A stretch of DNA of 64,000 bases, from the IMG/VR virus record IMGVR_UViG_3300027759_000051. One strand, 5' to 3'. Below are positions 9,345 through 55,253 of this stretch, in pieces. The translations under genes were made by a program, and so were the position numbers. The notes beneath the pieces were generated by a model. The model ran no database searches. It saw nothing but the letters and a program-made list of their open reading frames with translations, and was not told where the DNA came from. The stretch comes from a virus. Position 1 is the stretch's first letter; each line of letters begins with the position of its first letter.

Positions 9345-9408
<64 letters not shown>

Positions 9409-9418
<10 letters not shown>

Positions 9419-10196: not shown

Positions 10197-10223
10197 ATCA
10201 TTCCCTTCTTTCGTTAACTATAG

Positions 10224-14868: not shown

Positions 14869-14884
14869 GATTATATTGTAGTTC

Positions 14885-21849: not shown

Positions 21850-21922
21850 GCTCCCATGGCTCAGCGGATAGAGCAACAGTTTCCTAAACTGTAGGTCGCA
21901 TGTTCAAATCATGCTGGGAGCG
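21850..21922 (+). tRNA. tRNA-Arg(CCU)
   Basis: GCTCCCA/TGGGAGC acceptor, ACAGT-TTCCTAA-ACTGT anticodon arm, TTCAAAT T loop. Confidence 0.9.
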
Positions 21923-21926
21923 CAAT

Positions 21927-23277: not shown

Positions 23278-23350
23278 GCCCTCGTAGCTCAGGGGATAGA
23301 GCAACGGACTTCTAATCCGCAGGTCGTACGTTCAAATCGTACCGAGGGCG
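23278..23350 (+). tRNA. tRNA-Arg(UCU)
   Basis: GCCCTCG/CGAGGGC acceptor, CGGA-CTTCTAA-TCCG anticodon arm. Confidence 0.9.
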
Positions 23351-23626
23351 CAATTAATGTAAATGGAGAGTTCCAGCATGGCACCATACAGTTATGGAAG
23401 ATTAATAATACTTAGATGCTGTAGAGACTGGCCGTGTCACGAAGCGTACGCTTACGGCAGAGGTGGAAGATGTGCTATTTGCAGGAACTTTCCGGTAGTC
23501 ATTGAAGAAGACTACGTTACTCCCACATCTCCTTGTGTAGATTAATCAATTCTCTAGACCCAGATGATCTTACGTAAAAAGCGATGACTGCTAGTAATGG
23601 GAGAATGATGAACAATATTGCTTTTT

Positions 23627-33356: not shown

Positions 33357-33603
33357 TTCTGTACTCTCCGAGAAGCTCTTCTATGTCTACGTTTGGATAT
33401 AGTTTTTGTGCTTCCTCTTCATCTATTTCGTCAATTTCTGTTGACCCAGTTATTAGTGACTTCATGACTTCACTTGTTTCAATTAGTTCGCCTTCGCGTA
33501 ATTCAAACTCGTCTAACGTTTTTTTTGCATCATCAAATATTAAGACCATAAGTTTTACATTATCTGTATTGTTTTTTACTTTTGTGAAAAATCTTAACCT
33601 CAT
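33349..33603 (-). CDS. small acidic protein, candidate immunity/antitoxin
   Basis: ATGA overlap with the stop of the protein ending in a RelA/SpoT-like domain. Confidence 0.55.
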   Translation of the reverse strand: MRLRFFTKVKNNTDNVKLMVLIFDDAKKTLDEFELREGELIETSEVMKSLITGSTEIDEIDEEEAQKLYPNVDIEELLGEYRNG

Positions 33604-39600: not shown

Positions 39601-40616
39601 GAGACTCGCCGCTTTGATGCTTCAAGACCAGTTCTTGCCCTTTTTGCTCCACTGACAAACCAGCGAAACTCAGACGGTGTTTCCTCTACGGAAACATTCT
39701 CTAGATCTAGTTCTGGAGAATATGGGTCATTTCTATTCTTTGCCCTTGTCTGCTTTACTCCCCAGTGATTTTTCCACCACATATTGTTAAAGACGCGACC
39801 AGAAGAAAGTCCAGCCGTTTGCGGTCTTCCTCTTATTGCATCTCTTTCGCTGAGTTCAATACGTGACATTTCATCTGCCACGCCCGTCACTCTTCGTGCA
39901 AAATCTATTAGTTTCCCTGGAGAAAATCCAAAGCAGTTTGAACCACTTGCATCAGTAAATTGGTTTGCGGCAGGACTTCCTGGAGGGCACCTAAACTTGT
40001 TTAAGTCGTCAACCCATATACCTAGTTTTGCTGCTGCTCTTGCGCCAAGGCTCCCACCGGCAACGCTCCTACCAATATTCATTCCTGGTAATTTTTTAAA
40101 CTCAATAGATTTCTCCATTGGTTCACCAGACCAGAGCTTATAAGGATTTACCCGCTCTTCCGAGCCTTCAATAACTCCACCAGTCTTCGGACTGATCTTG
40201 TATTTACGTACACGGATTTCTGGTTTTTTTCTTTTTTCTTCTGCTTCTGGTTTTGCTTTTTCAACCCAGCCAAAGTTAACATCTTTTCTTGATTCGTTAA
40301 TTTTTGATTGTAGGTTTGGAAGCCACAGGAACGTTTTGTTTTCTCCGCCCTTTTCTCCCGGCTTGAATCTCACACCGTTTATATCAACTACACCAGGAAT
40401 CTCTCCGGTGTTGGTTCTTTTCTTTCCGTCTGAGTCTTTTGCACCAGGGAGTGCTTTGACTGCAAGATCTGCATTAAGGCGTGCAGATTTAATTGAATTT
40501 ATTACTGAGTTCTTAAAAGCTATGGCAGTCTCGTCAAAGTCTCTCATTTCTGAGAGAGGTGAGAAAAGACTAGGAGATAGATAGACTCTATTTTTACGGT
40601 GTCTCTTACCCGTCAT
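33600..40616 (-). CDS. 2338-aa GLSSG-linker polyvalent protein: zincin, ART-like, two ParB-like, shared cassette A, RelA/SpoT-like
   Basis: HELGH; EQKLLLPPG; IDGHHRW and IDGHNR; RIKALKSLVRK/DVIRYT/YQGIN/FELQFHT; six GLSSG. Confidence 0.85.
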   Translation of the reverse strand: MTGKRHRKNRVYLSPSLFSPLSEMRDFDETAIAFKNSVINSIKSARLNADLAVKALPGAKDSDGKKRTNTGEIPGVVDINGVRFKPGEKGGENKTFLWLPNLQSKINESRKDVNFGWVEKAKPEAEEKRKKPEIRVRKYKISPKTGGVIEGSEERVNPYKLWSGEPMEKSIEFKKLPGMNIGRSVAGGSLGARAAAKLGIWVDDLNKFRCPPGSPAANQFTDASGSNCFGFSPGKLIDFARRVTGVADEMSRIELSERDAIRGRPQTAGLSSGRVFNNMWWKNHWGVKQTRAKNRNDPYSPELDLENVSVEETPSEFRWFVSGAKRARTGLEASKRRVSRLQDSLGIESSPEKEAVNADRIEAIEELNKRGLLELELTDRKSYSEVVSVISNRLRDKNPEAWAKMSDNQRQQLIEADVDRWYATERSMLDALLDTYVQMPDHIGKNLRELSWSKNPEGPDEARANAFGSGFEHSTIGIDLETIMDNQEAMLPSLDEYSRMRIDAIGGSDSENAQAANDFLVSSQLEARRTAALALGHEGFARHIMYHELGHTLQITAVGRKIKSEIDSNGYYEYFDYQGNKKRITKVEEITPEAVLDAFSDPDLLESINNVMSRSDSVKFLAGSYPQTVENPGIRAAEVSAELFALRMSGLIWGDDVDGALEWMDDVSDGRFFEDRAEYDLYEQDVFNTAGSSPLSKVSKNKIYYQSSIDDVRKRRNDRRSQNLKDVKTLASDLSEDEIIKAIIAHEASAEKAKIDGNLDDSSYFSDIAKEYEKAGNSKFKDSFSDILKTAREQNGLLSDKEISEIAEKRRIEEINNNVNNDTEEQLLNRLAEIEVDLMQDGISEDLKSKLQAEKRKYRQAIRDRRSESDENASVSSLNKFIDKKVDAILTSSGKNKKQKPKPKTFNSKKDAEEHALNERAKLLKTATPQERDAITQLADPEQVDIGNILDPEKQVGAAKAINKRNRRAIKMYSDGSGADVDDTSRLTGSLVGQVDNILIPSLELIDRSELTDAIEIETTLDLDLNQLGAKKDADLVIVDGILTGSVLGKKRPFNADSLEGNPTDGGKKPTRVMVRVQAGQKGHFPHWSDLSSDKPDDYEQKLLLPPGKLKIVGTKIDDDGNEILIAEIVHQNDPMQSLDSMISNIGEEGPNPNQHAKGTRRKLEKSVNSHAARRRKEGKSSTVVTPLTKQKDIEAKTKKINDDIDVVKASSSPQRRAPKADPDPLDDVYGEELSPVDRKVELQSRTSETFERLRDVLQFGGSDDDIEISESDVPESVRTLLKTKSNEELSEIIIKQALEFHNSVDKRPRVRLSGEELDDVMVGPSGRPLRYGDRSFVNEQRRRDVLAAQLRDALDTLTTDESKKFATSMGKKAMRELAKDELDYLVEDGTIELDTKKKLEDILDVAIPENEADFDSFELFEAITSVIEKQKAKNSARRSSGLSSGLVGTAVSAWNEWNNADPDNLQGTKDLLMIALLMKGIDATSAEDWAFGKLNAARAAVRTRREKRRGLSSGAKKSVSSRGEEIFKPESIDDALKMIKEGKLVELDSVDQVSTLIDKLNEIVQDALSKGDKAPNYDLCRVSVPGTNLFCSDSKGIERINMPQFSGTPVPGSDADKLPKDKGGGVDGTKAFEEHLSKIGIGVKRKKVKASELKATQNELVGSKVVGMITNEKFDPEGEAIFVSRDGYVIDGHHRWAAQVGRDLSDGKLGDLELNVIVVDSPISEILREANKWATDFGMASKSGKGDGNSSPPVVRDIKKGATPDRSPGLKANRDRPMSEYGMDWKLEYTEDANVESAKTWDGWDDIPVSKVDLDLDILPTESHLKGSSIDKVVSGEEPFREGYDPYLLIDETGKIFVIDGHNRVAMHRALGNKNMQARVLDLRETSAPWGTQDRQPAGLSSGRSAGLSSGRKTTRHSNRDPDLERQFPDPEENAKREAHEKFISDWEAGMDMSFTTIERQRDEVGGRFSPDFLRAREVGYNDARSRWFGKGTAEQPKNFNPKQKASTDYSSWYRNTVSQLGRGKANRSQDADREQEYAGEDAGIRDFLMSVAPDTSGWSREDRESLAKLEDEYGFGRGGSSPGRSAGLSSGKTIKKVQYKHGGYDMIEPDNPEPKPGAPRDVIEAATAQREKLVEAEKEITKTLIDLANKHEGEMRGLDFRIKALKSLVRKILDEKDTEHGGDAQKAAESMSDVIRYTTAFDPEEYVSGVKNMVEELQAAGYKLRIKNYWKGDDPYQGINIAAIGPDGTKFELQFHTPQSVEDKEDIHKLYETYRESKDNAQRRQLYDEMVQMANKIGVPYPPDELLSIGETKFQPFQEVDIKSLIRELETMGVSS

Positions 40617-40633: not shown

Positions 40634-42196
40634 TTAGTTGGTGTCTGTGTCTGATTGGAGCAACTCAAACTCAACCAAAGATGCGATGAAACTTTCATCA
40701 ACATTCCCTGACTTCTTTGACATATCTCCACCCATAACCCAATTTGGTGGGATCAAGTTTTCTTTTCCAAGATCCTTGGCACGCTTCATGATGTGAAGTC
40801 TTGCTGCTTCTTTATCCTTGGCACGACCATAGGACTGCACCGCGTTACGCAAGTCTTCTTCTGAAGTTATTGGGTAAGATCCATCAGGAAGGGCCATTCC
40901 TTCCTTAGCAAGAGACATTCTCTTATCATCAGAGAAAGCTCTCTTCAAGGCGATCTCTGCTGCTTCAGCTTCAATCTCTTGTGCTTCCTCTGATTCGTAC
41001 TTGTCGTAGCCAAGAACTTCGCCATCAAGTGACACGAAAACATCGTATGACTTTCCATCTATTCCATCAATCTCTACAGCGTATGAGTCAACGCCTTCAA
41101 ATACGTCTGGCTCAACTGCGATTACTTGTCCCTCTATTGACTTGATTGCAATTTCAGCAGCATCAGAGAAACCAATAACAGTCATTCCACTAAGTGCTGA
41201 CTTTTGCTCAAAGACTGACTCGTCAAGTTTGTGGAAACCAACAACTTCTGCTGAAGTTCCATCAACGAAAACTTCACGTACTTGACCATCTTTTGTTTGA
41301 ACATCAACAACGAACATGTCAGCGGCAGCGGAGTATCCAGAGTCAATGACTATTCCCTTGAATTGTGATTCAACCAATCCTTCAATTTGAAGTAATCCGG
41401 GGAATCCTTTTTCTGAGATGCATCCACCTGGGCAGTCATCACATACTGCTGCGTTGCCGGGGTGTGTCTTTCTCTCAATTGCGCAAACGTATCCGTTTTT
41501 GCCAATTTCGGCAGCCTTCATACCCATTGATTCAATTCTGCGCTTACGCATGTCTTCGAGCATCATGGCTTTTTCTTCGTCCATCATCTCGTCGTCTTCT
41601 TCTTCATCTTCCATCATAGGCACGCCCATGCCCATGCCTTTTTTCTTCTTTGGCATCGTATTCATGCCGTACATCTTCTCTTCGCCGTACTCTGCTGCTT
41701 CAAGCTCTTCGTCTGACATTTCTGCCATCATGCCCATTGGCGATGGAGCATTACGCTTGCCCATGCCTTTTTTCTTAGGCATGCCGTGCATGCCCTTTTC
41801 TTCGGTCATTTCTTCGCCCATTTGCTCTGGAACATAAGGCAGTTTTCCGTACTTTTTCTTATATCCATCCCAGCCATACTGCTTGTAGTAGGACATCTTC
41901 ATCTCGTCCATGTCTTCTGGAGACTCAACTTCTTCTTCTATCTCGTCGGCTTCTTCGTCGCCTTCGCCGAGATAGATATTTACTTCGTTCTCATCTTCCG
42001 ACATCTCTTCATCTTCCATCATTTCCTTATTTTTGGAAATTGGAATCATTTTCATCTCAACTGGAGCTGCTCCACACTTTGCACATACCGCTGCGCCAGC
42101 CTTGTAGCCGCAATCGGTGGCTACTGCACCTTTTGCACATTTAAGGACATTTCCTTCTCCGTCAATGCTTAACATTGGTTTATTTTCAGTTTCCAT
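40634..42196 (-). CDS. Met/Glu-rich scaffold-like protein with PepSY-like repeats
   Basis: Low-complexity E/M/K centre; DAAEIAIKSIEGQVIAVE..YAVEI..YDVFVSLDGEVL; ALPDGSYPI domain. Confidence 0.65.
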   Translation of the reverse strand: METENKPMLSIDGEGNVLKCAKGAVATDCGYKAGAAVCAKCGAAPVEMKMIPISKNKEMMEDEEMSEDENEVNIYLGEGDEEADEIEEEVESPEDMDEMKMSYYKQYGWDGYKKKYGKLPYVPEQMGEEMTEEKGMHGMPKKKGMGKRNAPSPMGMMAEMSDEELEAAEYGEEKMYGMNTMPKKKKGMGMGVPMMEDEEEDDEMMDEEKAMMLEDMRKRRIESMGMKAAEIGKNGYVCAIERKTHPGNAAVCDDCPGGCISEKGFPGLLQIEGLVESQFKGIVIDSGYSAAADMFVVDVQTKDGQVREVFVDGTSAEVVGFHKLDESVFEQKSALSGMTVIGFSDAAEIAIKSIEGQVIAVEPDVFEGVDSYAVEIDGIDGKSYDVFVSLDGEVLGYDKYESEEAQEIEAEAAEIALKRAFSDDKRMSLAKEGMALPDGSYPITSEEDLRNAVQSYGRAKDKEAARLHIMKRAKDLGKENLIPPNWVMGGDMSKKSGNVDESFIASLVEFELLQSDTDTN

Positions 42197-42301: not shown

Positions 42302-45300
42302 TCATTTCTTTTTTCTTGTTGTTGGTTTCCTTGTTGTTGCTGATCTCTTCTTTGGTGCTGGGCGTGATGCTTTTACGGCATCTGCCCTTTCCTTTGCTTC
42401 TTGCCTCGCTTCGTTGGCAATAGCGTCTGCTCTGTCTTGCGCTTCCTTGAGGGCTGGAACGTTCTCAATTATGTAATCAACGGCTTTTTGTGCAGATGTT
42501 GCTGCGCGCATCAAGCCGTCTGGATCATCTTTTAGCCTCTGTACCCAGAATGCGAGGTATTGAGCATGGTCTTCTCTCGGCTCAACAGTTATGTCAAGTA
42601 TTGACATAAGGTATGCCGTTCCAAGTTCTGCTATTAATTCCTCAAATGCATATTCTGACTCAACTTTGGGTGAACCCATGTTTGGCCTATCAAGACGACT
42701 GCTGTGCCCAGTCCAGTGAACTATCTCGTGGAGAAGTGTTCCGTAGTACCCCTCTGGAGATGAGAACTCCGAGAATGGCGGGATTACTATCTTGTCTTGA
42801 AGGGGGCTGAAGTATGCCCTATCTCCAGAATGGTTGAGGTCAATATTTAGAGCTTTAGAGATGTCATCAACATCTGTTCTTCTCATGTCCTCAGGCAATG
42901 CATCCTCAGGGTCGTATATTGAACGATCTATCCCTTCAACCTGATCTAAGTTGAAAACATAACTTTCGCGGAGTATTCCACGGCTCTCCGTTTTAAGTTC
43001 TCCTGGATTGTTCCTATCTTCAACTTCCCTGCCAACTCTTGAGTAGAAGATAATTGGAGTTCCTTTTTCTCCCTTTTTGACACTTCCACCCTTGCTCTTC
43101 CATTGGTCAAAAGAAGCCCATATTGGCTTTTCGTAGCCACCTTCCTGCTGGGCTATTGAGAGCATTAGTGTATTTATGCCTCTGTATCTGGCCTTAGTCG
43201 TGCCGTTTTGAGGAGTCATTCCACCCATGCGCCATGGCGGTGACCATCTTGTGCCATTTGCTATTGAATCTTCCATTTGCTGTATAACGCTCTTGGTCAA
43301 TGTCTGGTATAGCTCGTCTCTTCTTCCCGACGAAAGGGGGGCGCCATCGAGCCTTGCTGGGGTTGGAATGTCTGAAATATTTGAATATGCCTTTGGCAGC
43401 GATGGGTACTTAACGTCAACGCGTGCAGTCATTTTCCTATTCGCATTTCCATCTACATTTGAGAATCTTTTTGCGCCACTACTAAGCCCAGACGAAGGAT
43501 TTCCAAATATTTCATCGTACGTAAGGGATGGGAGTCCTTTTTTCTTCGCTGCTAGGTTGTATCTTTCAACCATCTCTTTTTTCTTAGAATCGGAGATACG
43601 TGATGCTTTTCCTGAAATCTTTATTGGCGAAGTAGGGCTAGCAGCCTTTGCTTTTGCTTTTCTTTCTTTCCATCTAGATATTATTCCATCTAGATCTTCC
43701 GACTTACTAAAGTTGAGAATTGCGTATGCTTTACCAACTCTGTTTTTCTCAACAACAGCCTTAAATCTCTCGTAAGCTTCTCCGGCCTGTGACATTCTGT
43801 CAAACTCTCCGACTTCTGGGCCAAATGCATCTGCGGCGCTCTTGATCACGCCACGGTCAATAAGGTGGTCAATATACTGCGATGGAACACCCTTCTTAGC
43901 CCAGTTGTTGAACCCTTGTTTGTCAATAACTAATCCTGTATCTAGTATTTTTTGCAAAACATCTAGTCTATTGTCTGGATCTGCCCCAAGTGCTTGAATT
44001 AGTTTACTCAATGGGAAGTTTGAACTCTCTAGTACAACACCTTGTGGAACCAGTTCCCCAGCATTTGCGCTAGGAGCTTTTGTTACCGTCTCGGCTCCAA
44101 TGACCACATCAGACAAATCGTCCGTGTATCCAAATGGTTCTGGAGATGGGTAAACGCTTCTTAGAATTTCCCCATCCTCAAGCAGTGCTCGGAATGAATC
44201 TTTTGCTCTATCTGAATCTCTTGATGTTTTGCCAATAGAAGTTATTGTTGTTTCTTCAGTGCTATCTATCCAGTAAGGAGAGTAGCCAAATCCCCATATT
44301 TGAGTACCAACTACATCTGGGTAGTCAAGGATCCCAATACGGCTACCAACTCCTTGGGATTCTTCGGCTGACTGGAATAAAGCTCCAGCCAAACCCCTAT
44401 CTTTTTCAGGGATTCGGCTAAGTTCTTGTTCGCTTATTACCGAGCTATTCACTCTTCCTTCAGTCAAGCCAAGGAAAATTGCCTCTGTTATTTTACGAAT
44501 ATCAAGTTCTGATACTCCATTACCTTCTGCTGTTATGCTTTCCAGTTCTTTAACTGAAATGTTCAAAGTCTTTGCTATTTGGCTGTCTGGTATTGATTTT
44601 CCAGTTTCGTCAACAAATAAGCTACGGATTTTTGCTCCATCCAGCAACCATTCTCCACCAGGAGAGTGCTCCAAGTTTTGCGTCATTGGTCTTGACTTTA
44701 TTTTTGAACCAATAAATCTTGTTCTTATTTTTTCTTTAATAAGATCATTCATTGGTGGAACATAAGTGCTTCTAGCCCCGGAAGACAAACCTCTGGAAAC
44801 GGTTAGTGGGAGTTGGGTTCTCCTGCTCAACCTGTTAGTTGGCGTTCCATCTCTTTGAACTAAATTAGTTGAAGAGTTTCTATTTGGTTTTCTGAAAACA
44901 GATATTTCTTCAAGTTTTCTTGGAATTGAAACAAGTCTTCCAGAAGTGTTTGGAGTTCCATCATTCCACTCCAGTGGCTTGATCCAGATATTCCTTCTGT
45001 CAACTCTTTCTACCGAGCCCCAGTCTTCTCCGCCAACCTGCACCATGTCGCCAACTTCTACGTTGCTACGTTCTGCTAGTGCTGCGCCAGATGAAAGTCC
45101 AGCTCTAGACCTATTTTCATAGGATCCTGGCCTGTTTCCAAATTCGTTATACCTGTCTGACAGCATACGTACTGCCATGTCTTCTTGTTCTTTGTCTCCG
45201 TCTGCAAAACTAAGCAAATCGTATGCAATTCTTTCGCGCATTGAAGCCAATTCTTCACGCTCATTAGCAAATGATGGTACTGATTCGTACTTTCTTCTAT

Positions 45301-45613
45301 ATCTGCTCTGTGCTTCTGAAACTTCTTTTGGCGTAGAGTTAAGCCTCTTGGCTATGTCTTCTGGAGTTAGTCCTTCGTAGCCAAGTAACCACATTTCACG
45401 GTCATTTGCGCGCTCTTCTACTCTTGCTGTTGCGCCAGATGTCCTTGAGGTACTTTTGCCTGAACTTAATTCTCTGTACTCGTCGGATGACGGGCCTGGT
45501 CTTCTTTTTCCTGGGCGTGTTTGTGCGCGTAGGATATCCCTATCCGCAAATTTCTGCCTATCTTCTTCAGACCAGGGGCGACGATTTGATACCTCGCCCC
45601 TTACCCTTTTTTT
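42302..45613 (-). CDS. -1 frame extension of the protease polyprotein ending in an ArdC-like antirestriction domain (track ORF 42302-45394)
   Basis: Frame is open from 45616 with no ATG until 45394; five LSSG linkers; WSPPW, YRGIN, VKKGEKG, VFNLDQ, HEIVHWTGH, YAFEELIAE match ArdC. Confidence 0.8.
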   Translation of the reverse strand, partial: KKRVRGEVSNRRPWSEEDRQKFADRDILRAQTRPGKRRPGPSSDEYRELSSGKSTSRTSGATARVEERANDREMWLLGYEGLTPEDIAKRLNSTPKEVSEAQSRYRRKYESVPSFANEREELASMRERIAYDLLSFADGDKEQEDMAVRMLSDRYNEFGNRPGSYENRSRAGLSSGAALAERSNVEVGDMVQVGGEDWGSVERVDRRNIWIKPLEWNDGTPNTSGRLVSIPRKLEEISVFRKPNRNSSTNLVQRDGTPTNRLSRRTQLPLTVSRGLSSGARSTYVPPMNDLIKEKIRTRFIGSKIKSRPMTQNLEHSPGGEWLLDGAKIRSLFVDETGKSIPDSQIAKTLNISVKELESITAEGNGVSELDIRKITEAIFLGLTEGRVNSSVISEQELSRIPEKDRGLAGALFQSAEESQGVGSRIGILDYPDVVGTQIWGFGYSPYWIDSTEETTITSIGKTSRDSDRAKDSFRALLEDGEILRSVYPSPEPFGYTDDLSDVVIGAETVTKAPSANAGELVPQGVVLESSNFPLSKLIQALGADPDNRLDVLQKILDTGLVIDKQGFNNWAKKGVPSQYIDHLIDRGVIKSAADAFGPEVGEFDRMSQAGEAYERFKAVVEKNRVGKAYAILNFSKSEDLDGIISRWKERKAKAKAASPTSPIKISGKASRISDSKKKEMVERYNLAAKKKGLPSLTYDEIFGNPSSGLSSGAKRFSNVDGNANRKMTARVDVKYPSLPKAYSNISDIPTPARLDGAPLSSGRRDELYQTLTKSVIQQMEDSIANGTRWSPPWRMGGMTPQNGTTKARYRGINTLMLSIAQQEGGYEKPIWASFDQWKSKGGSVKKGEKGTPIIFYSRVGREVEDRNNPGELKTESRGILRESYVFNLDQVEGIDRSIYDPEDALPEDMRRTDVDDISKALNIDLNHSGDRAYFSPLQDKIVIPPFSEFSSPEGYYGTLLHEIVHWTGHSSRLDRPNMGSPKVESEYAFEELIAELGTAYLMSILDITVEPREDHAQYLAFWVQRLKDDPDGLMRAATSAQKAVDYIIENVPALKEAQDRADAIANEARQEAKERADAVKASRPAPKKRSATTRKPTTRKKK
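45574..45613 (-). promoter_or_regulatory. candidate programmed -1 ribosomal frameshift signal
   Basis: In-frame A_AAA_AAA, 5-nt spacer, then AGGGGCGA..TCGCCCCT hairpin; joins the two ORFs in the correct frame. Confidence 0.7.
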
Positions 45614-48600
45614 CTGTTACGTCCTGACGAGAGTCCACGCCCAGAATCTCTTCCAGACATTTCTCCGCTATCTTCACGCATTATCAAGTCGCTCTCAAGC
45701 CCAGCGATCCATCTCTTGAAAGAAGGGTCATTTGGGTTTGGGGACTTGCCTGTTTCACGCCTGTAGCTTGCGAACGCAGAAGCCCTCTCAGATGACGGAC
45801 GGCTCATGAATGAACTGTACATCCTGTCGGTTTCTGCCATGTCGGCATCAAGCAATGACTCACGTCTAGCGCTGTTCTCATCTGCGGCTATTGTGTCTTG
45901 CATCATCTCACGACGCCCAGATGAGAGGGAAGAACGTCGAGCGCTTCTTGGGTTACCAGAATCACTGAAGTTCATGTAGTTAGCAACCATGTCATTAACC
46001 TGTGCTGACATTTTACCATCACCAAAAAATGCAGCTTCCGATACTTCTTCTGCCAAATCGTCTCGATTGCTTCTATATTCATCAAGCTGTTGATTAAGTT
46101 CATTTACTCTTGAGTTTATTTCTTCAACCAATTTTGTGTATTCGTCTAGTTCAATGTCGCCTTCATCAAGATCCATTCTTGCTGACTCAAGTTCAAGTTT
46201 TGCTGCCTCAACTTCTCTATATGTATCCGGAATTAGTTCTCTTGCATCTTCTAAATCCTGAGACTTCCTGTCGTACCTGTCCTCAAACATTTCAACTTCA
46301 TCACGGATCTTTTGAATAAAATCATCAAGATCAGCAAGACTATCAACCGTTTCCGAACGTAATGGACCTCCATTATTTTTGTCAAAGTCGTATACGTCCA
46401 TTGCGTTTATTTGTCTTTGTACGTCTGGATTTTTTTCGTATACTGCTTTTACTATTTCTTCACGCACCTTGAGAGCATGTTCCAATTTTGCAAGTTGGTA
46501 ATTTCTTATTTCATCTCGATATGGTGCTGAGTTTTCTGCGTTTGGCATTACATATGAATACAGTTGTTCACCTGAAAATTCTTTTTCAACTTCTGGTGTC
46601 TCTGCCAAAACTTGAATAGCTGCTGTCCTGAGGGACGATTCGTTATTTGCATCAATCCTCTCGTAAGCATCGCCCATTGGCTCAAACTTCATTCCAGAAG
46701 ACATTCCTCTTGTTGCTGTTGAACTGTATACAGATCCAGCTACCGTTCCTACGTCTACGCCGTCGCTGTCACTTCTGCTGCGTCCAGAGGAGAGTCCCCT
46801 TGCGCTGCTTGGTGTTCTAGGCTTGCTAGGAACGTCAACATCTTGCAATGCTGCGTTGACTGCGTTTGTCGCTTCTGCTTCAAGTTTAAAGATTTCATTT
46901 ATATTTTCTTTTTCTGAAGCATTTAGAGCTGGGTCATTTGCTTGTAGTTTTGATGCAACTTCTTTATAGCGGTTTAATTCAAGTTCAATCTGTTTTGCCT
47001 GATTGAAAGCCAATACCCGTATAACGTTTTCGTCAGGTATCAAAGCAGCAACATCATTAAAAACTAAACCAGAAAGAATCTCTTCTGCGTCTTCATCATC
47101 TTTTGCTTGTCCGCTGTCTACGAGGACATTTACTAAATTCCAATCTTTTATTAGATCCTGCTTGGCATCTTCTACATCATAAAATGCACTTTCAGAACCA
47201 ATGTACTCGCCATCTTCATCAAAGTCTTCTGATAAATTTTCTTCAAATATTTCTCTTGCCGTAGATGCTAAATCCTCATCATCTACGTCATATATTTCCT
47301 TGAGCTTTGCGTTGACTATTTTATTATCTTCTGATCGCAGCGCTTCAAGATCTTTATCGGCAGTTTCAAACGATACTCCAGCTAAGCGTAGCTTTTGCTT
47401 GGCTAGCCTTAGTGCTTGAACATCTTTCATACGCTGAGTTGATGGGTGTTCTGCAATAAGATCACTTCTTCTAGAAAGTATATCTTTGTTGGTTTTTAAT
47501 GCAGTGTCATACTCTTGTGCCAGCTCAATTCTTTCTCTTCTTAGCCTTTGCACTTCTCTTGATGGAGATGGTATATCAGTAGCTCTTCTATCGCCGTCAA
47601 AAGTTTCAGGAGCTAACTCTGCTACTGAATCAAGAACATCATGTATCTGCAATGGCGTTGCATTAAACCTGTAAGCAAGTTCATCTACGCTTAGTCCACT
47701 ATGTGAAAAATCTTTAGCTATTGCTTCAGCAACTAATTGCTTTTTGTATTCCGTTTCGTCTTCACTCATCTGCCCAAACTGACGAATACGCTTTGGCTTT
47801 AGTTTTCCATCAAATGGCAATCCCATCCTAAAGCGCCTCGCAGCTGCAAGTCTTTGCACTCTGCCTGATATGGCAGGGCTTTTTTCTCCAGCAACAACTG
47901 GGTATTCGGCTAGGAGTTCTTGGTACGGGATTGTAACGTAGTCCCTCCAGAACATATCGTGGTCTTCTGCTGGTGTATCGGGAGTATCCCAGTTATGTGG
48001 TCGGGTTTTTGATGTTCCGTCATCTGGAGTGTCATAAACCCATTGTCCGGACTTTCCGTCCCAACGCGGCCTATGAGGTTCTCCATTGAGTTGTGCGTAA
48101 TCGCTTGGATCTCTCTTTGAAGGATCGTATTCCTCTCCGTACCTACCAGAAGACAGACCACCCCTGCCGTAAGGCCTATCAAGGTAGTCATCGTACGCAC
48201 TGGTCATTGCCTCAAGCGTGTTGCCATTAGCCATTCCTATGTACCGATTATGAATGGCATCACTTTCTTCCCAGTACCCAACTATGCTTGCTGCATCATC
48301 TGAAGAAACGCCATTTTCCTTGAGTGCGTTAATCGCGTCTCTTCTGAAGTTTGCTGAATAACCATATTTTGCTGGATTGTCTTCAAAGTCGGCTTTGGCA
48401 ATTTCTGGGTCATAATCACGCGAACCGGGTCGTTCGCTGTTTGCATTGTCTACGAAATAAATCTGCTCAATATTGGATCGTTCATTGTCGCTGAGTTCTT
48501 CCCATGAGGAGAATGGTTTACCTAGTTCTCTTCTTCCAGAAGACAATCCTCTTCTGCCTGAAGACATTCCTGCTCTGCTGTATGGGCCAGATGACGTGCT

Positions 48601-51600
48601 TTGCCTGCTTGCTCCAGGGATAAGTCCCTCTATTCTGTCAAGCCTGAATGTCCTATATTCACCGGACTCGCTATCTATGCCACCAAAGTAAAGAGCTCCA
48701 GCCTTTGACCGACGAAGAGAGTCGTAAATACCATTATCCGACTCTGCTCTGATCTCACGCATTTTGCCGTTGTACTTGAATGCAACCGCATCTGGGGAAA
48801 CAAACAAGTATCTGAAGTTTGCACCAATGTCATCGGTGCGGGCTGCTGCCTCTTCTGGGGTTATGTTTGCTGGGTCTCCTTGGCGTGGATCAATTCCTCG
48901 TCCAGAAGAGAGACCACCTTCACCTTCTAGGCCAGCCTCAAGTTCGGATGAAGTCTTTAAAAAGTTCCGCTGCTCATCTTCGGACATTGAATCTTCTATT
49001 GCTTGCCTGATGTCATAACTGTCTTCATCGTACGAGCGGTACCCAAAGTCGCCGGGGCGGTTTTTGTAGTCGGACTTATTGATGCCGTGGTTTCTTTCTA
49101 AATAATCCCAACCAGGGTCGTCGCTTAGTGAACTCGTAGTGTTGGTCAGTACTTCATATACTTCGTAACCTAGATCTTCAGTGGAAAATTCGTCTATTTC
49201 TTTCAGGCGCTCAGCCAATGGCACATCTTTGCCAAGGGAGTTGACGACAAGTTTTTCACCAGTTGGCTTTTTACCAGAAGACAGACCACCTTCTGGAATA
49301 AATATACCTCTAGTTGCGCCACTTTCATAGTCTCTTATTGACTTTTCAAACTGTTCTGGCGTCATATTTGCTCTGAGGGCGGTAAGGAAATCCTCGCCAG
49401 TCATTTCATCAATAGACTCTGATATATATGCTTCTTCAACTTCATCGCTTGATGGGCTGTAGTCACGTTCTGACCCACGTGATCCAGATGACTCAAAACC
49501 AAAATCAACACTGCCCGCATACGAGTCAAGTTCATCTTCATCCGGCATGCCACCATAAACGGCATCATAGATCTCTGCGTCACTCATCACGTCCCGTGCG
49601 GAGTTTGATGAATAGTCATACCAAGAGTTATCACCTGTAATCGTTCCGTCAGATATCAACTTCTCAATTACGTCTGCGTATTTTTTATCATTATCAGAAA
49701 GGTTTATATAAACTTCTTCTTTGCGATGATCGGGAAGTGCTGCAACCATCCTCAGTCGTTCTTTTAATTGCTCAGGAGACATTCTTCTACCAGAAGACAG
49801 ACCACCCCTGCCATACGGTCTATCAAGGTAGTCGTCGTAAGCACTGGTCATTGCCTCAAGCGTGTCGCCATTTGCATTTCTCAGGTAGCGCTTATGAATA
49901 GCGTCATTCTGTTCCCAGTTGGCAACTATGTCTCCTGCTTCATCTGAGGAGAGTCCAGTTTTCTTGAGTGCATTGACAGCGTCTCTTCTGAAGTTTGCAG
50001 AGTAACCATACTTTGATGGATTATCTTCAAAGTCTGCTTTAGCAATTTCTGGGTCGTAGTCACGTGAACCAGGACGCTCGCTGCCTGGATTATCCGCAAA
50101 ATACGTCTGCTCAATAGCGGAGCGCTCATTATTGCTGAGTTCTTCGTATGAGGAGAATGGCTTGCCTAGTTCTCTTCTACCAGAAGAGAGACCACCTCGT
50201 TCGGCATCCATTTCGGCAAGCATTTCAAATGCCTTCTCATATTCAGCGTCGTTTGTTTTGTTGTTTCTAAGCTTTTTAATTGTTGGGTGGTCTTCTTCGA
50301 GGACCCCTCTGTCAATCAGGAAATCGGCAAGTGCTTTAGGATCGTTTCCTGCTTCTTCTTCTGCGAGGTCTACCCAACTCTTTTTACCAGAAGAGAGACC
50401 ATCCCGCTGAATATCTGCGGCTAGAATTTCTTGCATTTTCTGTGCAACCAGTGAATTTGGCTCCCCATACTCATTGGTTAATCTATATCCCGGAACGCCC
50501 TCATTTGAAAGAGCTTCCCTTGCTCTTTGCATGATGGAGTCATATTCTGCATCACCAGAATTCGCCATCTCCTCAAGCCTGCGCTCGGCAGTCATCATTG
50601 CTCGATTTTTTGAGGTATTTCTTAGACTTGGGTCAACTGTCCGTTTAGGCTTTCTAGGCTTTGCGGGAATGTCTCCAGATTCATTAAAGCGAATGCCAGA
50701 AGAGAGACCGCCTCTACCGAATCCATATTCGCTTTCGAGTTTGGCTAGACTTTCTCTATCTTCCCTGGCCCAGCCAGAAGTATCTGGAGCGACGGCCATG
50801 AGGAAATCTTTCATTCCTGCGTCAATTCCTGCGTACTGCTGTTCTCTGCTTGAATCTTCCGAGCGGTTAGCTTTGCCTCGTCCTAATTGAGAAACGACGT
50901 CTCTGTACCAACTTGAATACTTCGTAGAAGCCTTCTGCTTTTCATTGAAGTCTTTTGGCTGCTTTGCTGTGCCTTTGCCAAACCAGCGTGACCTTGCGTC
51001 GTTGTAGCCAAGTTCACGACCACGAAGGAAGTCCTCTGAGAATCTGCCACCACGCTCGTCTTGCTGACGCCCAATCGTGGTGAAGCTCATGTCCATGCCA
51101 GCTTCCCATGCATCAATCAGTTTGTCATGCGCTTCTCTCTTTGCATTTTCTTCTGCATTTGGGAATTGCTTCTCAAGGTCACGATCCCTATTTGAGTGAC
51201 GGCTCAGATCTCTTTTACCAGAAGATAGAGCTCTCCTGTCTGCTGCTGGTTTCTTGCTTCCGCCTTTTTGCTTCTTGAATGCTGCTGTTGCGCGTGCTGC
51301 GTCAACGACGCCTCTTGTTCCGAAGTCATTGATGCCTGGAATTGCTGGTCTTTGGTATGGAGTTCCTTCTTGAACTAATCCGTCGTTGTCGCCGTCCCAT
51401 GCCTTTGGATTAAATCTTGCAGCCATTCCACGGCCAGCCCTAGCAGTACGTCCTGCAAGGTTTCTGCCGAGTGCTTTTACTGCGTTATTAACTGCTTCTG
51501 CAAAATCTTTATTTACGCCAGATGTGAAAACAATTCCACCATCATCAACATATGCTTCTGCTCGGTAGTAGTCAATGATTGGGTCAATTGCCTGCTTCAT

Positions 51601-53070
51601 CTCAAATGCATCTTTTTTAGTTACTGGCAAGTAATAAATTTCATTGCTTGCAGACTTTACGGAGTATTCGCCTATGCGTGTCAACTTGACTGAAGGCACA
51701 AGCGCATCACGCTTGCTCTTGACTGCATGCCTTAGGTCGCCTTTTACAAATACTTCTAGGTACTTGTCTTCAACCTCTTTGAGCCACTTGACTTCTTCTT
51801 CTTGCATTTCTTCTAAGACTTCTTGCTTCTTGATAGGGCTTACCTTCACTACGCCCTCTGGGATAACGGCGAAGCGACACTTGCCACCATCTTCCACTTT
51901 CAATGCAATTATCTTGCAAACACCATTGCCTTCATACATGACGCAGTTTGAGCATTTGACGCCAATTTTTGCGACCATGTTCTCCGCTGCAGGCTTATAT
52001 CCAGCCCAAACGCCGTTCGCATCTTCGTTGAACTTGCCGTGTCTTTTGGTTATCTTTATAAGGGCTTCAGCAAGATCTGCTTCTTCCTGAACCAACTTTG
52101 GCTTTCCTGCTGGCTTGCTTGATGAATCTTCACCAGCGTAGTCAATTTGAACAAGTGGCATCTGGTTAGGCATGCCACCTGGCAAGACCTGTGGAACAAT
52201 AACTGTCTGATTTGGATTCTGTGGAACCATTGGACGCGAAGGCATTCCCATTGGCATCATTGGTTGTGGTTGTTGTGGCATCTGGCCTGGCATTTGCATT
52301 GGCTTATTTATGCGCTGTGGAGCAGAGAACATATAGGTACCGTTGTCATTATGAAAACGACACTTGTATGACTCTTCTTCGTCTTCTTCGCCAGTGGTAA
52401 ATGTGACAGAGCCATCCTCAATGGACGAGATCTTTACTTTTGATCCAGTTTGCAAAGAAAGTTCTTCCTGCAGCTTCCTCTGAACTTCATCTTCTGGGAT
52501 GTTTGGCATTCCCTGCATCATTGGCATCATCATTGGTTTTACGCCATCTGCGTTTTTTACAGAAATTGTGCCAGTCAGCTGATTAGCACCGTGCAAAACT
52601 GGAGAAACTTCATAGAGTTCAACTTCGTACAAGATGTTTGCTTGTGATCCTTGGTCAAACTGTGCACGGAGAGTTTTGTATCCGATAGACCACTCTTGCT
52701 CTTCACCAAAAAATGCAACATTGGCGAATGCTTCTTTGCCTTTTTCTGAGTTTAAGTTGAATTGGACTTTCGCATAAAGTCCACCGATTCCGGCTGATCT
52801 CATTTTTGGTGGGAGGCGAGGATCGTTTGGCGGAACCTCATACATTTCAAGGACTTTACCTATTGGATCGTTCCAGTTATGACCCCATACAACACGTGGC
52901 TTACGGCGCAGAAGGCTCTTAGCAAATGCTCCAGTTGCGCATACGTCACCAACGGAATCCTTGTTACCTATACCAGCAACAAAACACTCAACTATTCCCT
53001 GTGCTTGGTCTAGATTTACCTGACCAGTGCTTGCTTTGTATTGAATATTTTGTGAGTATGTATAGGACAT
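45601..53070 (-). CDS. HK97-type prohead protease fused to a giant GLSSG-linker cassette array (2489 aa)
   Basis: N-terminal DSVGD, WGHNWNDPIG, WSIGY, LYEVSPVLHGAN; directly after portal; 14 [GAS][LM]SSG linkers; WYL-like YRTFRLDRI. Confidence 0.9.
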   Translation of the reverse strand: MSYTYSQNIQYKASTGQVNLDQAQGIVECFVAGIGNKDSVGDVCATGAFAKSLLRRKPRVVWGHNWNDPIGKVLEMYEVPPNDPRLPPKMRSAGIGGLYAKVQFNLNSEKGKEAFANVAFFGEEQEWSIGYKTLRAQFDQGSQANILYEVELYEVSPVLHGANQLTGTISVKNADGVKPMMMPMMQGMPNIPEDEVQRKLQEELSLQTGSKVKISSIEDGSVTFTTGEEDEEESYKCRFHNDNGTYMFSAPQRINKPMQMPGQMPQQPQPMMPMGMPSRPMVPQNPNQTVIVPQVLPGGMPNQMPLVQIDYAGEDSSSKPAGKPKLVQEEADLAEALIKITKRHGKFNEDANGVWAGYKPAAENMVAKIGVKCSNCVMYEGNGVCKIIALKVEDGGKCRFAVIPEGVVKVSPIKKQEVLEEMQEEEVKWLKEVEDKYLEVFVKGDLRHAVKSKRDALVPSVKLTRIGEYSVKSASNEIYYLPVTKKDAFEMKQAIDPIIDYYRAEAYVDDGGIVFTSGVNKDFAEAVNNAVKALGRNLAGRTARAGRGMAARFNPKAWDGDNDGLVQEGTPYQRPAIPGINDFGTRGVVDAARATAAFKKQKGGSKKPAADRRALSSGKRDLSRHSNRDRDLEKQFPNAEENAKREAHDKLIDAWEAGMDMSFTTIGRQQDERGGRFSEDFLRGRELGYNDARSRWFGKGTAKQPKDFNEKQKASTKYSSWYRDVVSQLGRGKANRSEDSSREQQYAGIDAGMKDFLMAVAPDTSGWAREDRESLAKLESEYGFGRGGLSSGIRFNESGDIPAKPRKPKRTVDPSLRNTSKNRAMMTAERRLEEMANSGDAEYDSIMQRAREALSNEGVPGYRLTNEYGEPNSLVAQKMQEILAADIQRDGLSSGKKSWVDLAEEEAGNDPKALADFLIDRGVLEEDHPTIKKLRNNKTNDAEYEKAFEMLAEMDAERGGLSSGRRELGKPFSSYEELSNNERSAIEQTYFADNPGSERPGSRDYDPEIAKADFEDNPSKYGYSANFRRDAVNALKKTGLSSDEAGDIVANWEQNDAIHKRYLRNANGDTLEAMTSAYDDYLDRPYGRGGLSSGRRMSPEQLKERLRMVAALPDHRKEEVYINLSDNDKKYADVIEKLISDGTITGDNSWYDYSSNSARDVMSDAEIYDAVYGGMPDEDELDSYAGSVDFGFESSGSRGSERDYSPSSDEVEEAYISESIDEMTGEDFLTALRANMTPEQFEKSIRDYESGATRGIFIPEGGLSSGKKPTGEKLVVNSLGKDVPLAERLKEIDEFSTEDLGYEVYEVLTNTTSSLSDDPGWDYLERNHGINKSDYKNRPGDFGYRSYDEDSYDIRQAIEDSMSEDEQRNFLKTSSELEAGLEGEGGLSSGRGIDPRQGDPANITPEEAAARTDDIGANFRYLFVSPDAVAFKYNGKMREIRAESDNGIYDSLRRSKAGALYFGGIDSESGEYRTFRLDRIEGLIPGASRQSTSSGPYSRAGMSSGRRGLSSGRRELGKPFSSWEELSDNERSNIEQIYFVDNANSERPGSRDYDPEIAKADFEDNPAKYGYSANFRRDAINALKENGVSSDDAASIVGYWEESDAIHNRYIGMANGNTLEAMTSAYDDYLDRPYGRGGLSSGRYGEEYDPSKRDPSDYAQLNGEPHRPRWDGKSGQWVYDTPDDGTSKTRPHNWDTPDTPAEDHDMFWRDYVTIPYQELLAEYPVVAGEKSPAISGRVQRLAAARRFRMGLPFDGKLKPKRIRQFGQMSEDETEYKKQLVAEAIAKDFSHSGLSVDELAYRFNATPLQIHDVLDSVAELAPETFDGDRRATDIPSPSREVQRLRRERIELAQEYDTALKTNKDILSRRSDLIAEHPSTQRMKDVQALRLAKQKLRLAGVSFETADKDLEALRSEDNKIVNAKLKEIYDVDDEDLASTAREIFEENLSEDFDEDGEYIGSESAFYDVEDAKQDLIKDWNLVNVLVDSGQAKDDEDAEEILSGLVFNDVAALIPDENVIRVLAFNQAKQIELELNRYKEVASKLQANDPALNASEKENINEIFKLEAEATNAVNAALQDVDVPSKPRTPSSARGLSSGRSRSDSDGVDVGTVAGSVYSSTATRGMSSGMKFEPMGDAYERIDANNESSLRTAAIQVLAETPEVEKEFSGEQLYSYVMPNAENSAPYRDEIRNYQLAKLEHALKVREEIVKAVYEKNPDVQRQINAMDVYDFDKNNGGPLRSETVDSLADLDDFIQKIRDEVEMFEDRYDRKSQDLEDARELIPDTYREVEAAKLELESARMDLDEGDIELDEYTKLVEEINSRVNELNQQLDEYRSNRDDLAEEVSEAAFFGDGKMSAQVNDMVANYMNFSDSGNPRSARRSSLSSGRREMMQDTIAADENSARRESLLDADMAETDRMYSSFMSRPSSERASAFASYRRETGKSPNPNDPSFKRWIAGLESDLIMREDSGEMSGRDSGRGLSSGRNRKKG

Positions 53071-53165: not shown

Positions 53166-55253
53166 TTACTGAAACATTCTTCCAAATGTCCACGCTCTGC
53201 GTGATTCGTCTTCGGCAACTTCAAATCTCTTCCGCGCCATGACGTTTGCATAGTGAGAAACTACTAATTCCCTAAATGCTGATGATCTTTGCTCTTCTCC
53301 TGCAACATTTAAGGATGTGAACATTGATTCTGAGATTTTGTCTCTTGTTTCTTTATTTATTTCTTTTATTCTGATCATCTGGGAACTTACTTGAGCCTGA
53401 ATATCTTGACTAGAAGCCCACGCTTTAGCGCTCTTGGTGTCTTTGTTTGTGACTTCTTTGTGCGCATCTTGAATAATTGCCGCAATGACTGGCTTTATGT
53501 CTTCATCCATCTGGCGATCCCATGTTTCTGACTGAAATATGGAGTCAATGTCTAGAGTTCCAGCAAAGAGTGATTTTTTAGCCTTTGCTCCTGAGATTTT
53601 TTCCAGAACAACACGCTGTTGTCTCTCTACAACTCTTTCAATGCTTCTGTTCAGAATCTCTTCCCACCTGTCAAGATCCAACTGCTCTAGCGATTTCGTG
53701 CCAGGGACTAGTGGTATTGGGGAAAACTGTTCTTCTTCTTCTTCTTCTTCTGGCGGAGCTGTCGCTAAGGTTGTTTCTGGTGGTGACTGCTCTGGCGGAA
53801 CTCCCAATGGTGGGGCAACTGCATCTTGAGGCATTGTTGTTTGAGCAAGTGCTCCAGCCATTGTGTTTGGATCAATCGGCTGCTCTCCGCCTGGCATGCC
53901 AGGAGGCATTCCCATTACTGGAGGCATTCCCGGCATTCCGGGAGCACCTGGTGGCATTCCTGGGGCACCTGGAGGCATTCCTGGAACTCCGCCTTGCTCC
54001 GCAGCAGGTGGTTCCATCTTCTTCTTTGTATTTGCAATCGGAATGAGGTTTGGATTCATCAATAGCGAGTCCGACAAATCGCTTTCTGTCTCTTTGCGCC
54101 CAGAACCATATCTGTATTCGTTGTTTGATATGAGTCCAGCTTGGAACTCATCCATCAAGTATCTTCTCTGCTCTTGCTTGTAAAGCATGATGATTGGGAC
54201 GTTTGATGTGTCAAAGTCTAGGTAGTAGTCATCGTCAAGTTCATCAAGCCCCCGCTCAAGGATCTCAAGATGAGGAAGCATTGTTTCCATCCAGAAAACA
54301 CGAATCTCTTCGGCTGCATTGCTGAAGGTTCTGCCAGCAGCGTTTCCTATTACGGATTCTGGTACACCGAATGATGCAAGTATTTCTTCTTTTGTTATCT
54401 GCCTCATCTGCATGTATGCAGCATCTCGTGGGCTGGCAGATGTGTCAACGTAGTCAACGCCATCATCAGATGCGATCACAGAGGTGTACCCAGTTCTAGA
54501 CAGGTTTCCCCTGAAGCGACTCTTGAGTTCTTCCTTGTCATCGTCGTCAATTTCGCCACGGAGAACTAAAAGTCCACCTGGTCTTCCGTCGTTGAGCAAG
54601 TAGTTTCTATTGTAGAGCTTTGCTAAGTTTTCTATTTCAATCGCTACTCCACATGCTTCTAGCGGAGTCAACGAAAGGTAAGGATCGAGCGGGTGAGGTC
54701 TGCGAATCCACAGAACATCCTCAGGTTTTAGAGTAACTTTTTGTCCATGAGGCATTTGAACCTCAAATCCAGAAACGAACTTTTTTGCATCTGGAATTGG
54801 AGCCGTAGATTGAGGCGGAAGAAGGTTCAGGCCGACAATGCCGCCATCACGTCCCCGCACCTTCTCTATAAAGACACCACGGGTACCAAGCAACAATTGA
54901 GCAGAAACTCTATATCTAAAGATAAAAGAGTTTTCACCGATATTTGATTTATTGTTCAGAACTTCAAGAAGCCTTGAGTTTTTTGCGCCCTTACCAGAGA
55001 GTATTTCCCCGTCTGGCGAGTTATCTTTTCTCAGTTGTATTGGAAGTCTTGCTTGGTTTCCTGCAATAGCGTCAATACACCTAGCAACCCAAGTGACCTT
55101 CTGCATGCCCTCTTTGTATGCTCGCTCAATATCCCATGAGTCCCTATATGGTCTTCCTGAATAGCCGGGGTTGTGAGATATTGGAGCACCAGGCCCAAGA
55201 TCTTTTGATTCCGCCCCATTTATAGATTTATCACTACGGGAGTTCCATGCCAT
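53166..55253 (-). CDS. HK97-family portal protein with Pro/Met-rich C-terminal extension
   Basis: VARCIDAIAGNQARLP, LTPLEA, NDGRPGG, EEILASFGVP..IG, NEYR. Confidence 0.92.
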   Translation of the reverse strand: MAWNSRSDKSINGAESKDLGPGAPISHNPGYSGRPYRDSWDIERAYKEGMQKVTWVARCIDAIAGNQARLPIQLRKDNSPDGEILSGKGAKNSRLLEVLNNKSNIGENSFIFRYRVSAQLLLGTRGVFIEKVRGRDGGIVGLNLLPPQSTAPIPDAKKFVSGFEVQMPHGQKVTLKPEDVLWIRRPHPLDPYLSLTPLEACGVAIEIENLAKLYNRNYLLNDGRPGGLLVLRGEIDDDDKEELKSRFRGNLSRTGYTSVIASDDGVDYVDTSASPRDAAYMQMRQITKEEILASFGVPESVIGNAAGRTFSNAAEEIRVFWMETMLPHLEILERGLDELDDDYYLDFDTSNVPIIMLYKQEQRRYLMDEFQAGLISNNEYRYGSGRKETESDLSDSLLMNPNLIPIANTKKKMEPPAAEQGGVPGMPPGAPGMPPGAPGMPGMPPVMGMPPGMPGGEQPIDPNTMAGALAQTTMPQDAVAPPLGVPPEQSPPETTLATAPPEEEEEEEQFSPIPLVPGTKSLEQLDLDRWEEILNRSIERVVERQQRVVLEKISGAKAKKSLFAGTLDIDSIFQSETWDRQMDEDIKPVIAAIIQDAHKEVTNKDTKSAKAWASSQDIQAQVSSQMIRIKEINKETRDKISESMFTSLNVAGEEQRSSAFRELVVSHYANVMARKRFEVAEDESRRAWTFGRMFQ

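Follow-up and report, generated by a model that had tools for sequence, protein, structure and literature searches.

The question raised by the virus record IMGVR_UViG_3300027759_000051 is where its protease polyprotein ends. The stretch of DNA that was analyzed (64,000 nucleotides (nt), called the window in the following) carries on its minus strand an open reading frame (ORF) of 2489 amino acids (aa) that starts with a predicted prohead protease, followed in the -1 frame by an ORF of 1030 aa that ends with an ArdC-N/metallopeptidase cassette. A reading made from the letters without database searches (the sequence-only reading) had claimed that a programmed -1 ribosomal frameshift extends the polyprotein through the second ORF to about 3590 aa, and the predicted product that we computed is 2488 + 1101 = 3589 aa long. 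Judging from the signal and its conservation in related contigs, we consider it likely that a programmed -1 ribosomal frameshift at A_AAA_AAA joins the protease polyprotein to the ArdC-ended extension. The junction consists of the following parts:

45601-53070, minus strand: 0-frame ORF of the predicted S78-headed cargo polyprotein, 2489 aa, assigned by PF04586, phrog_80 and the linker count
45622-45633, minus strand: final LSSG linker in the 0 frame, encoded by CTC TCG TCA GGA
45617-45619, minus strand: TAA stop of the -1 frame, located shortly before the slip site
45607-45613, minus strand: slippery heptamer A_AAA_AAA, Lys2487 and Lys2488 in the 0 frame (codons AGA/AAA/AAA, X_XXY_YYZ in register)
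45601-45603, minus strand: 0-frame stop codon TAA, 3 nt past the heptamer
45574-45601, minus strand: candidate stimulatory hairpin with an 8-bp stem and a 12-nt loop, after a 5-nt spacer (GGGTA) behind the heptamer
45395-45607, minus strand: bridge, 71 codons in the -1 frame, which would be translated only after a shift
42302-45394, minus strand: ORF called from the first ATG, 1030 aa, which would form the distal part of the 3589-aa product

The 2489-aa ORF ends with GGA CGT AAC AGA AAA AAA GGG TAA on the minus strand (protein ...GLSSGRNRKKG*), and the stretch common to both frames at the slip site is only 16 nt long. From 45616 onward the -1 frame runs open to 42302; starting with AGG (45607) it has 1101 sense codons ahead of its stop at 42302, and it reads QKKRVRGEVSNRRPWSEEDRQKFAD...ELSSGK...NDREMW. 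The end of the ORF, the TAA in the -1 frame, the heptamer within the shared stretch and a hairpin 5 nt further on, all of which the sequence-only reading had pointed out, were found again base for base, and the -1 translation also contains the linker variant ELSSGK and runs on into the 1030-aa ORF as it had stated. The upstream TAA in the -1 frame is missing in the 97%-identical relatives L077/L078.

A further element may be hidden in the last linker. The usual linker codons TCT TCT GGN are used in 12 of the 14 linkers of the 2489-aa ORF, and the last one is encoded by TCG TCA GGA, by which an AGGA is created 8-9 nt 5' of the heptamer (45622-45625, minus strand). TCA GGR, and with it AGGA or AGGG, is kept in all five clade sequences described below, where it overlaps the conserved Ser-Gly codons of the linker at a spacing shorter than that of dnaX. 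By analogy with dnaX it is a possible Shine-Dalgarno-like stimulator.

The arms of the hairpin are AGGGGCGA (45601-45594) and TCGCCCCT (45581-45574). On its own it folds with -17.2 kcal/mol, and in a context of 51 nt with -19.8 kcal/mol (z = -4.3), a stability that was reached by none of 200 shuffled sequences; across three lineages the in-context z-scores range from -3.1 to -4.3. Within the clade, seven G-C/C-G/A-U pairs of the stem are invariant and one is compensatory, so that 100% of the cells are paired. The compensatory pair is an A-U to C-G exchange in L004, in which each of the two substitutions alters the amino acid encoded in the -1 frame (Glu to Ala and Arg to Gln), and the loop has three unrelated sequences among the clade members. 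An Rfam search of 45300-45900 returned no frameshift element and a chance snoRNA match (E 0.3) as sole hit. We also considered other roles for the structure: an intrinsic terminator was ruled out as the hairpin is not followed by a T-run or T-tail, and a pseudoknot was ruled out by eye, as the loops differ among the lineages and share no common downstream complement. No promoter-like or terminator-like site was found on the coding strand at the junction. Taken together, the locus combines an in-register heptamer, a long -1 ORF with a short overlap, a 3' stem-loop, and conservation of both the signal and the coding capacity, which is the canonical -1 frameshift layout that the sequence-only reading had recognized in heptamer, spacer and stem-loop.

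Conservation of the signal was analyzed in seven samples, which yielded five distinct sequences (window, L004/L005, L006, L007 and L077/L078) and stem, apart from the window, from ENA k141 contigs, ENA scaffolds, JGI and Logan. Using the C-terminal part of the polyprotein as query we found the S78-headed polyproteins P0003, P0004 and P0005, and L077/L078 were reached through P0006, which is 97% identical to the 1030-aa ORF; P0007 is probably another clade member. The contigs of P0003, P0004 and P0005 are syntenic with the window for terminase, portal and polyprotein, and L006 additionally holds the ArdC ORF, a 529-aa ORF and a giant ORF. GAAAAAAAGG is invariant across the five distinct sequences, with exactly seven A in each. 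The common pattern is ...TCA GGR [CGT AAC or AGC AAA] MGA AAA AAA GG..., followed by GGGGCG[A/C], the loop and [T/G]CGCCCC TGG. The signal is retained among relatives whose identity is only 69-74% over the conserved first 620 aa and about 33% in the C-terminal cassettes, and the cassette adjoining the slip site varies among the clade members. The -1 extension is colinear within the clade, as residues 254-1101 of the window align with residues 194-1037 of L006 at 45% identity, with ArdC at the end. Conservation of the slip site and compensatory changes in the hairpin had been named by the sequence-only reading as a check of its claim, and both were seen, with a single compensatory pair in the five sequences.

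These data also bear on the possibility that the interruption is an artefact or a DNA-level variation, i.e., that the true genome has eight A and one continuous ORF or that the population is a mixture of A7 and A8. Homopolymers are indeed error-prone on some sequencing platforms. However, the run has seven A in all seven samples from at least three assembly sources, and L004/L005 are MEGAHIT-style k141 contigs that were assembled by a different pipeline than the scaffolds. Furthermore, L004 has a different 0-frame tail (GGT CAA GGG GCG CGG TAA, GQGAR*) with A7 unchanged, which argues against a common assembly error. A continuous ORF would also need neither a conserved 0-frame stop nor a hairpin directly past the run, and we therefore regard this explanation as very unlikely.

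The homopolymer allows for a second alternative, the strongest competitor of a ribosomal shift, in which RNA polymerase adds one A at A7/T7 in some transcripts. The resulting protein would be the same 3589-aa product (...RKK RVRG...), and slippage of bacterial RNA polymerase is established in phage genes and in genes of insertion sequences (IS) according to the 2016 recoding review (PMC5009743); it could even operate together with ribosomal slippage. Nevertheless, the run of seven is shorter than the runs of nine A or T at which efficient slippage is documented in the same review, and the stimulators described there are nascent-RNA stem-loops adjacent to the run on its 5' side, whereas no conserved 5' hairpin was seen here and the conserved structure is located 3' at the classical frameshift spacing. 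In addition, the run is fixed at exactly seven and in heptamer register in five of five sequences. Transcriptional slippage is therefore unlikely in our view, and we infer that the slip is ribosomal.

If a shift takes place, the bridge between slip site and first ATG should be translated, and the following two elements are located in it:

45476-45583, minus strand: conserved basic module of about 36 aa, RRPWSEEDRQKFADRDILRAQTRPGKRRPGPSSDEY, which belongs to no Pfam or PHROG family
45458-45469, minus strand: LSSG linker within the bridge (ELSSGK)

There is no ATG, GTG or TTG in the -1 frame from the upstream stop to 45394. A comparison of the window with L004 over the 50 codons that separate the slip site from the following SSG revealed 7, 10 and 27 substitutions at the first, second and third codon position of the -1 frame, respectively, and the codon differences in this frame are 20 synonymous and 11 non-synonymous ones. 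The other two frames contain stops and show just two or three synonymous differences. Going by these substitutions, the bridge evolves as protein, and does so in the -1 frame only; the aligned sequences thus demonstrate the signal, its conservation and -1-frame coding selection on a bridge devoid of start codons.

It has to be considered here that no recoding occurs at all, with the polyprotein ending at 45601 and the 1030-aa ORF starting on its own at the ATG at 45394 or at a non-canonical start in the bridge. This is how gene callers annotate the locus: they split it in every relative examined and leave a 210-nt "intergenic" gap, and a separate start could also coexist with frameshifting. 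The protein-type selection on the bridge upstream of the ATG does not fit this explanation, nor does the conservation of the bridge module over dozens of loci without any ATG, GTG or TTG before it. Moreover, the first ATG is located at non-homologous positions within the clade. For L004 and L006 this ATG encodes the Met within a GMSSG linker, at extension residue 47; in the window the corresponding linker reads ELSSG, and the first Met is extension residue 72, 25 codons further on and inside the next cassette. A well-spaced Shine-Dalgarno sequence before the first ATG is lacking in the junction sequences read (window and clade relatives), and the junction is free of promoter-like sites. An independent start at 45394, which the sequence-only reading had put forward as the finding that would speak against its claim, is very unlikely to be the whole explanation in light of the selection on the bridge, the variable position of the ATG and an in-frame alignment to a fused relative across this Met (P0014, see below).

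To place the bridge in a wider context we used the first 760 residues of the -1-frame translation begun at 45616 as query in an exhaustive HMMER search. Query residues about 2-60 match inside continuous polyproteins of 1342-3231 aa (P0011, P0013-16, P0019, P0023, P0025) and also free-standing proteins of 46-115 aa. From the alignment the consensus of the module is R-x-P-W-S-x-E-D-R-Q-x-F-A-D-x3-L-R-A-x-T-x-P-G-K-R-x2-G-P-S-x-D-E-[FW], for which we refer to it as the PWSxEDRQ module. It is widespread as polyprotein cassette and as stand-alone gene (loci L034-L058; P0018, P0024, P0026-P0032), and within polyproteins it comes after an LSSG linker and a Lys/Arg-rich stretch. Pfam and PHROGs searches with the module gave no family, and an AlphaFold2 model based on 21 sequences was uninformative (pLDDT 70.6, one short helix only).

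Among the 36 module loci recovered, a stop 13 codons upstream in the frame of the module is present only in the window and L004-L007; L077/L078, fetched after this count, carry the same junction. The other polyprotein copies of the module are continuous as far as DNA was fetched, and the combination of A7 and the GGGGCG hairpin is lacking in the fused and free-standing homologues. P0011, P0013, P0014 and P0015 have a Peptidase_S78 domain at the N-terminus; P0011, P0013 and P0015 contain ArdC-N and MPTase-PolyVal within the same ORF, and P0014 has UvrD and helix-turn-helix (HTH) domains without an ArdC match. Residues 1-109 of the -1 frame (from 45616) align in frame to residues 1942-2048 of P0014 (E 3e-19) and thereby cross the annotated Met. 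The C-terminus of P0001 gave no alignment to P0014 upstream of the module, and colinearity with this fused relative therefore exists only from the linker onward.

How far the interrupted arrangement extends was assessed with a family search using the N-terminal 620 aa, which identified at least 300 proteins of 1368-4356 aa, of which 120 were listed for a comparison of the tails. Among these 120, the C-terminus LSSGRNRKKG is present only in P0001, P0003, P0004 and P0005 (L004: ...KKGQGAR), and in a quick maximum-likelihood tree of the N-terminal region these four are monophyletic with an SH-aLRT support of 100. As the signal is limited to this clade among the listed family members, the frameshift would represent a break peculiar to this lineage in a polyprotein architecture that is continuous elsewhere, and the break has been retained while the protease region accumulated about 0.5 substitutions per site. 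The clade is known solely from ENA, JGI and Logan assemblies and was found through protein searches. Searches of other collections were without success: blastn of the junction against the phage collection and tblastn of the bridge against phages gave no match, a protein-seeded search with the polyprotein C-terminus found nothing in the viral contig collection, the -1-frame product (bridge plus ArdC ORF) retrieved from this collection nothing but ArdC-domain relatives, and scans of the viral and genome contig collections with the slip-site DNA pattern yielded chance matches only.

Based on these comparisons, a programmed -1 frameshift could proceed as follows. With the ribosome on Lys2487-Lys2488 (AAA AAA), the GC-rich 8-bp hairpin 5 nt further on would be placed at the mRNA entry channel, and in a fraction of the ribosomes both tRNA-Lys would re-pair one base back on A_AAA_AAA. 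Shifted ribosomes would then read AGG GUA AGG and continue through 1101 codons, whereas unshifted ribosomes would decode GGG and stop, which would give the 2489-aa product ending six residues past its last LSSG linker. The 3589-aa product of the shifted ribosomes would add the PWSxEDRQ module and an HTH-like cassette, then other cassettes and finally the terminal ArdC-N/metallopeptidase, each bounded by LSSG linkers.

Several points weigh against this interpretation. A-runs are common in the window, which has a GC content of 43% and many A6-A8 runs, and the 2489-aa ORF contains 10 in-frame X_XXY_YYZ heptamers; the heptamer alone is unremarkable, and the significance of the site rests on its position, the hairpin and the conservation rather than on the A-run itself. 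Covariation in the stem is thin, with one event in one lineage, and 106 of 500 shuffles match the observed score. Furthermore, the 3' arm (CGC CCC TGG) also codes for the conserved R-P-W of the module, and part of its conservation is therefore protein-driven. For both reasons we regard the structure as conserved and plausibly under selection, without taking the covariation as proof of it. In Escherichia coli, A_AAA_AAA is far less shift-prone than A_AAA_AAG, and about half of bacteria possess a single tRNA-Lys, as stated in PMC5009743. The A7 run could also allow some slippage of RNA polymerase, which would yield the identical protein, and the whole case is built on DNA sequence and comparison.

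The content of the two products gives an indication of what a shift would achieve. At the N-terminus of the 2489-aa product is a predicted Peptidase_S78 prohead serine protease (residues 24-169, about 52564-53001), which is supported by PF04586 (E 8.4e-11, 42.7 bits compared with a gathering cut-off of 21) and phrog_80 (E 1.5e-26). The cargo cassettes after the protease are set apart by 14 [LM]SSG motifs, mostly G-L-S-S-G-R/K, and the extension holds five more LSSG-type linkers, one in the bridge and four in the 1030-aa ORF. ArdC, which the sequence-only reading had placed among the distal cassettes, is indeed found at the end of the extension:

42497-43315, minus strand: terminal cassette with ArdC-N (about 42953-43315) and zincin-like MPTase-PolyVal (about 42497-42871)

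The respective matches are PF08401 (E 1.1e-29) and PF18818 (E 2e-37), and phrog_7245 is matched as well. In total, 28 [LM]SSG motifs are located in four giant minus-strand ORFs (14, 5, 6 and 3; within 11293-14907, 33600-40616 and 42302-53070), none is present in the portal, the 520-aa ORF described below or the other ORFs checked, and LSSG occurs once over all three plus-strand frames. Because the motif is concentrated in the giant minus-strand ORFs, we assume that the LSSG linkers are cleavage sites of a phage protease, and the pieces of the polyprotein would presumably be capsid cargo. With a shift efficiency below 100%, the distal cassettes should be sub-stoichiometric to the proximal ones; a reduced dose of these cassettes, as proposed in the sequence-only reading, is thus a reasonable assumption. 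One can go further and imagine the island of last LSSG, Shine-Dalgarno-like AGGR, A7, hairpin and PWSxEDRQ module as a self-contained dosage valve that is kept while the upstream cassette is exchanged between phages. Few ArdC-tipped copies of roughly 390 kDa would then be loaded beside many shorter protease-cargo ones, and the role of the PWS module, e.g., in binding DNA or the capsid interior, might need the first place after the shift. We offer this extended model tentatively and consider it rather unlikely.

The metagenomic relatives display the same organization on a larger scale: the at least 300 proteins of 1368-4356 aa (P0033-P0140 among them) have an N-terminal S78 protease followed by polyvalent cassettes, which include ArdC-N/MPTase, UvrD helicase, WYL, sigma-70 r4 HTH and pentapeptide repeats. 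The neighborhood of the polyprotein in the window comprises three further genes, and all genes of the locus are located on the minus strand:

53166-55253, minus strand: portal gene
40634-42196, minus strand: acidic ORF, 520 aa, which sits between the giant genes
33600-40616, minus strand: second giant ORF, 2338 aa

The first half of the 520-aa ORF is very rich in Glu, Asp and Met, and Cys clusters are present; it has no match to a Pfam or PHROG family and contains no LSSG, and its position is conserved in L006 and L077/L078 (529 and 520 aa). The C-terminal residues about 2102-2322 of the 2338-aa ORF match the head-morphogenesis PHROGs phrog_7625 and phrog_2859, and by these matches it appears to be another cargo polyprotein, whose C-terminal end would hold a head-targeting domain. 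Two more in-frame A_AAA_AAA heptamers are located inside this ORF at 40230 and 37527 (minus strand). The window also contains four tRNA genes, Met(CAT), Ile(TAT), Arg(CCT) and Arg(TCT), at 9344-9418, 10223-10297, 21850-21923 and 23278-23351. A ribosome that has shifted to the -1 frame would first decode AGG, the codon read by tRNA-Arg(CCT), and AGA stands in front of the heptamer. AGR codons are frequent in the polyprotein anyway (69 AGA and 33 AGG), and this general frequency may be the whole explanation for the coincidence of the Arg tRNAs with the slip site.

The arrangement can be compared with several known systems. The tau/gamma signal of E. coli dnaX consists of A_AAA_AAG, an upstream Shine-Dalgarno sequence and a downstream hairpin, as described in PMC5389563 and PMC5009743. 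The junction described here shares the double-Lys heptamer and a stable hairpin a few nucleotides downstream, and possibly a Shine-Dalgarno-like AGGA/AGGG 8-9 nt upstream, but its heptamer ends in A instead of G. In addition, the dnaX shift truncates the protein, whereas here the 0 frame stops at once and a shift would add 1101 residues, which is a "reversed" arrangement. The junction also resembles lambda G/GT, other shifts in tail assembly chaperones and orfA/orfAB of the IS3 family, where a late -1 shift leads to a minor longer fusion and a single mRNA is the source of two products in a set ratio (PMC5009743). In contrast to lambda G/GT and IS3, the gene is neither a chaperone nor a transposase but a prohead-protease-headed cargo polyprotein, and the extension, more than 1000 aa long, again consists of consecutive cassettes.

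With regard to the encoded protein, there is a resemblance to the polyvalent proteins of phages and conjugative elements with ArdC-N/MPTase (Iyer et al., 2017; PMC5512222): both are giant multi-cassette proteins with ArdC-N and a zincin-like MPTase that are presumed to travel with the DNA. As in polyvalent proteins, several unrelated conflict-type domains are combined in one protein, to which the relatives add UvrD helicase, WYL and HTH domains. In contrast to the statement in PMC5512222 that the assemblin-like peptidases of polyvalent proteins are always C-terminal, the S78 domain is N-terminal here (residues 24-169 of 2489) and in at least 300 relatives, and the cassettes are punctuated by LSSG. 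The word "frameshift" is absent from the text of Iyer et al. (2017). Closest in content are the continuous S78-headed polyproteins P0011, P0013 and P0015, which have the same N-terminal protease (their first 620 aa are 49-54% identical), the linkers, the PWSxEDRQ module and the ArdC-N/MPTase cassettes, all in one ORF. In these relatives all cassettes should be equimolar, as there is no frameshift, whereas in the clade of the window the reading frame is broken where the PWS module begins with its K/R-rich part. The nearest cultured phages are Gordonia Bendigovirus with 39-43% identity in the protease domain only. The closest cultured protease homologue, from Gordonia phage DalanDe (L079, ON755184.1 22424-27325), is a "capsid maturation protease" of 1633 aa whose S78 domain lies close to the C-terminus; isolated actinophages thus also possess large protease fusions, in the opposite orientation.

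Our literature searches, which were limited in reach, retrieved no report of frameshifting in a prohead or maturation protease, in agreement with the sequence-only reading, which had named tail chaperones and capsid/tail extensions, not prohead proteases, as the best-known places of phage frameshifting. The word "prohead" is absent from the available part of the 2016 recoding review (PMC5009743), and the classes of phage frameshift genes listed in the PRFect paper are other ones. From the sequence comparisons the locus is a well-supported case of probable -1 frameshifting in a head-protease cargo polyprotein, a gene context for which the literature searched contains no report; the mechanism itself is textbook. 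As gene callers split the locus and leave a gap, annotation overlooks the bridge module as well as the physical connection of the head protease with the ArdC cargo. If the frameshift is true, the gene classes with -1 frameshifting in phages would extend beyond tail chaperones and capsid or tail extensions. It would furthermore provide a concrete example, accessible to testing, in which translation controls the dose of anti-defence cargo packaged in the virion, and for which the sister lineages with the same cassettes in one continuous ORF would serve as natural controls.

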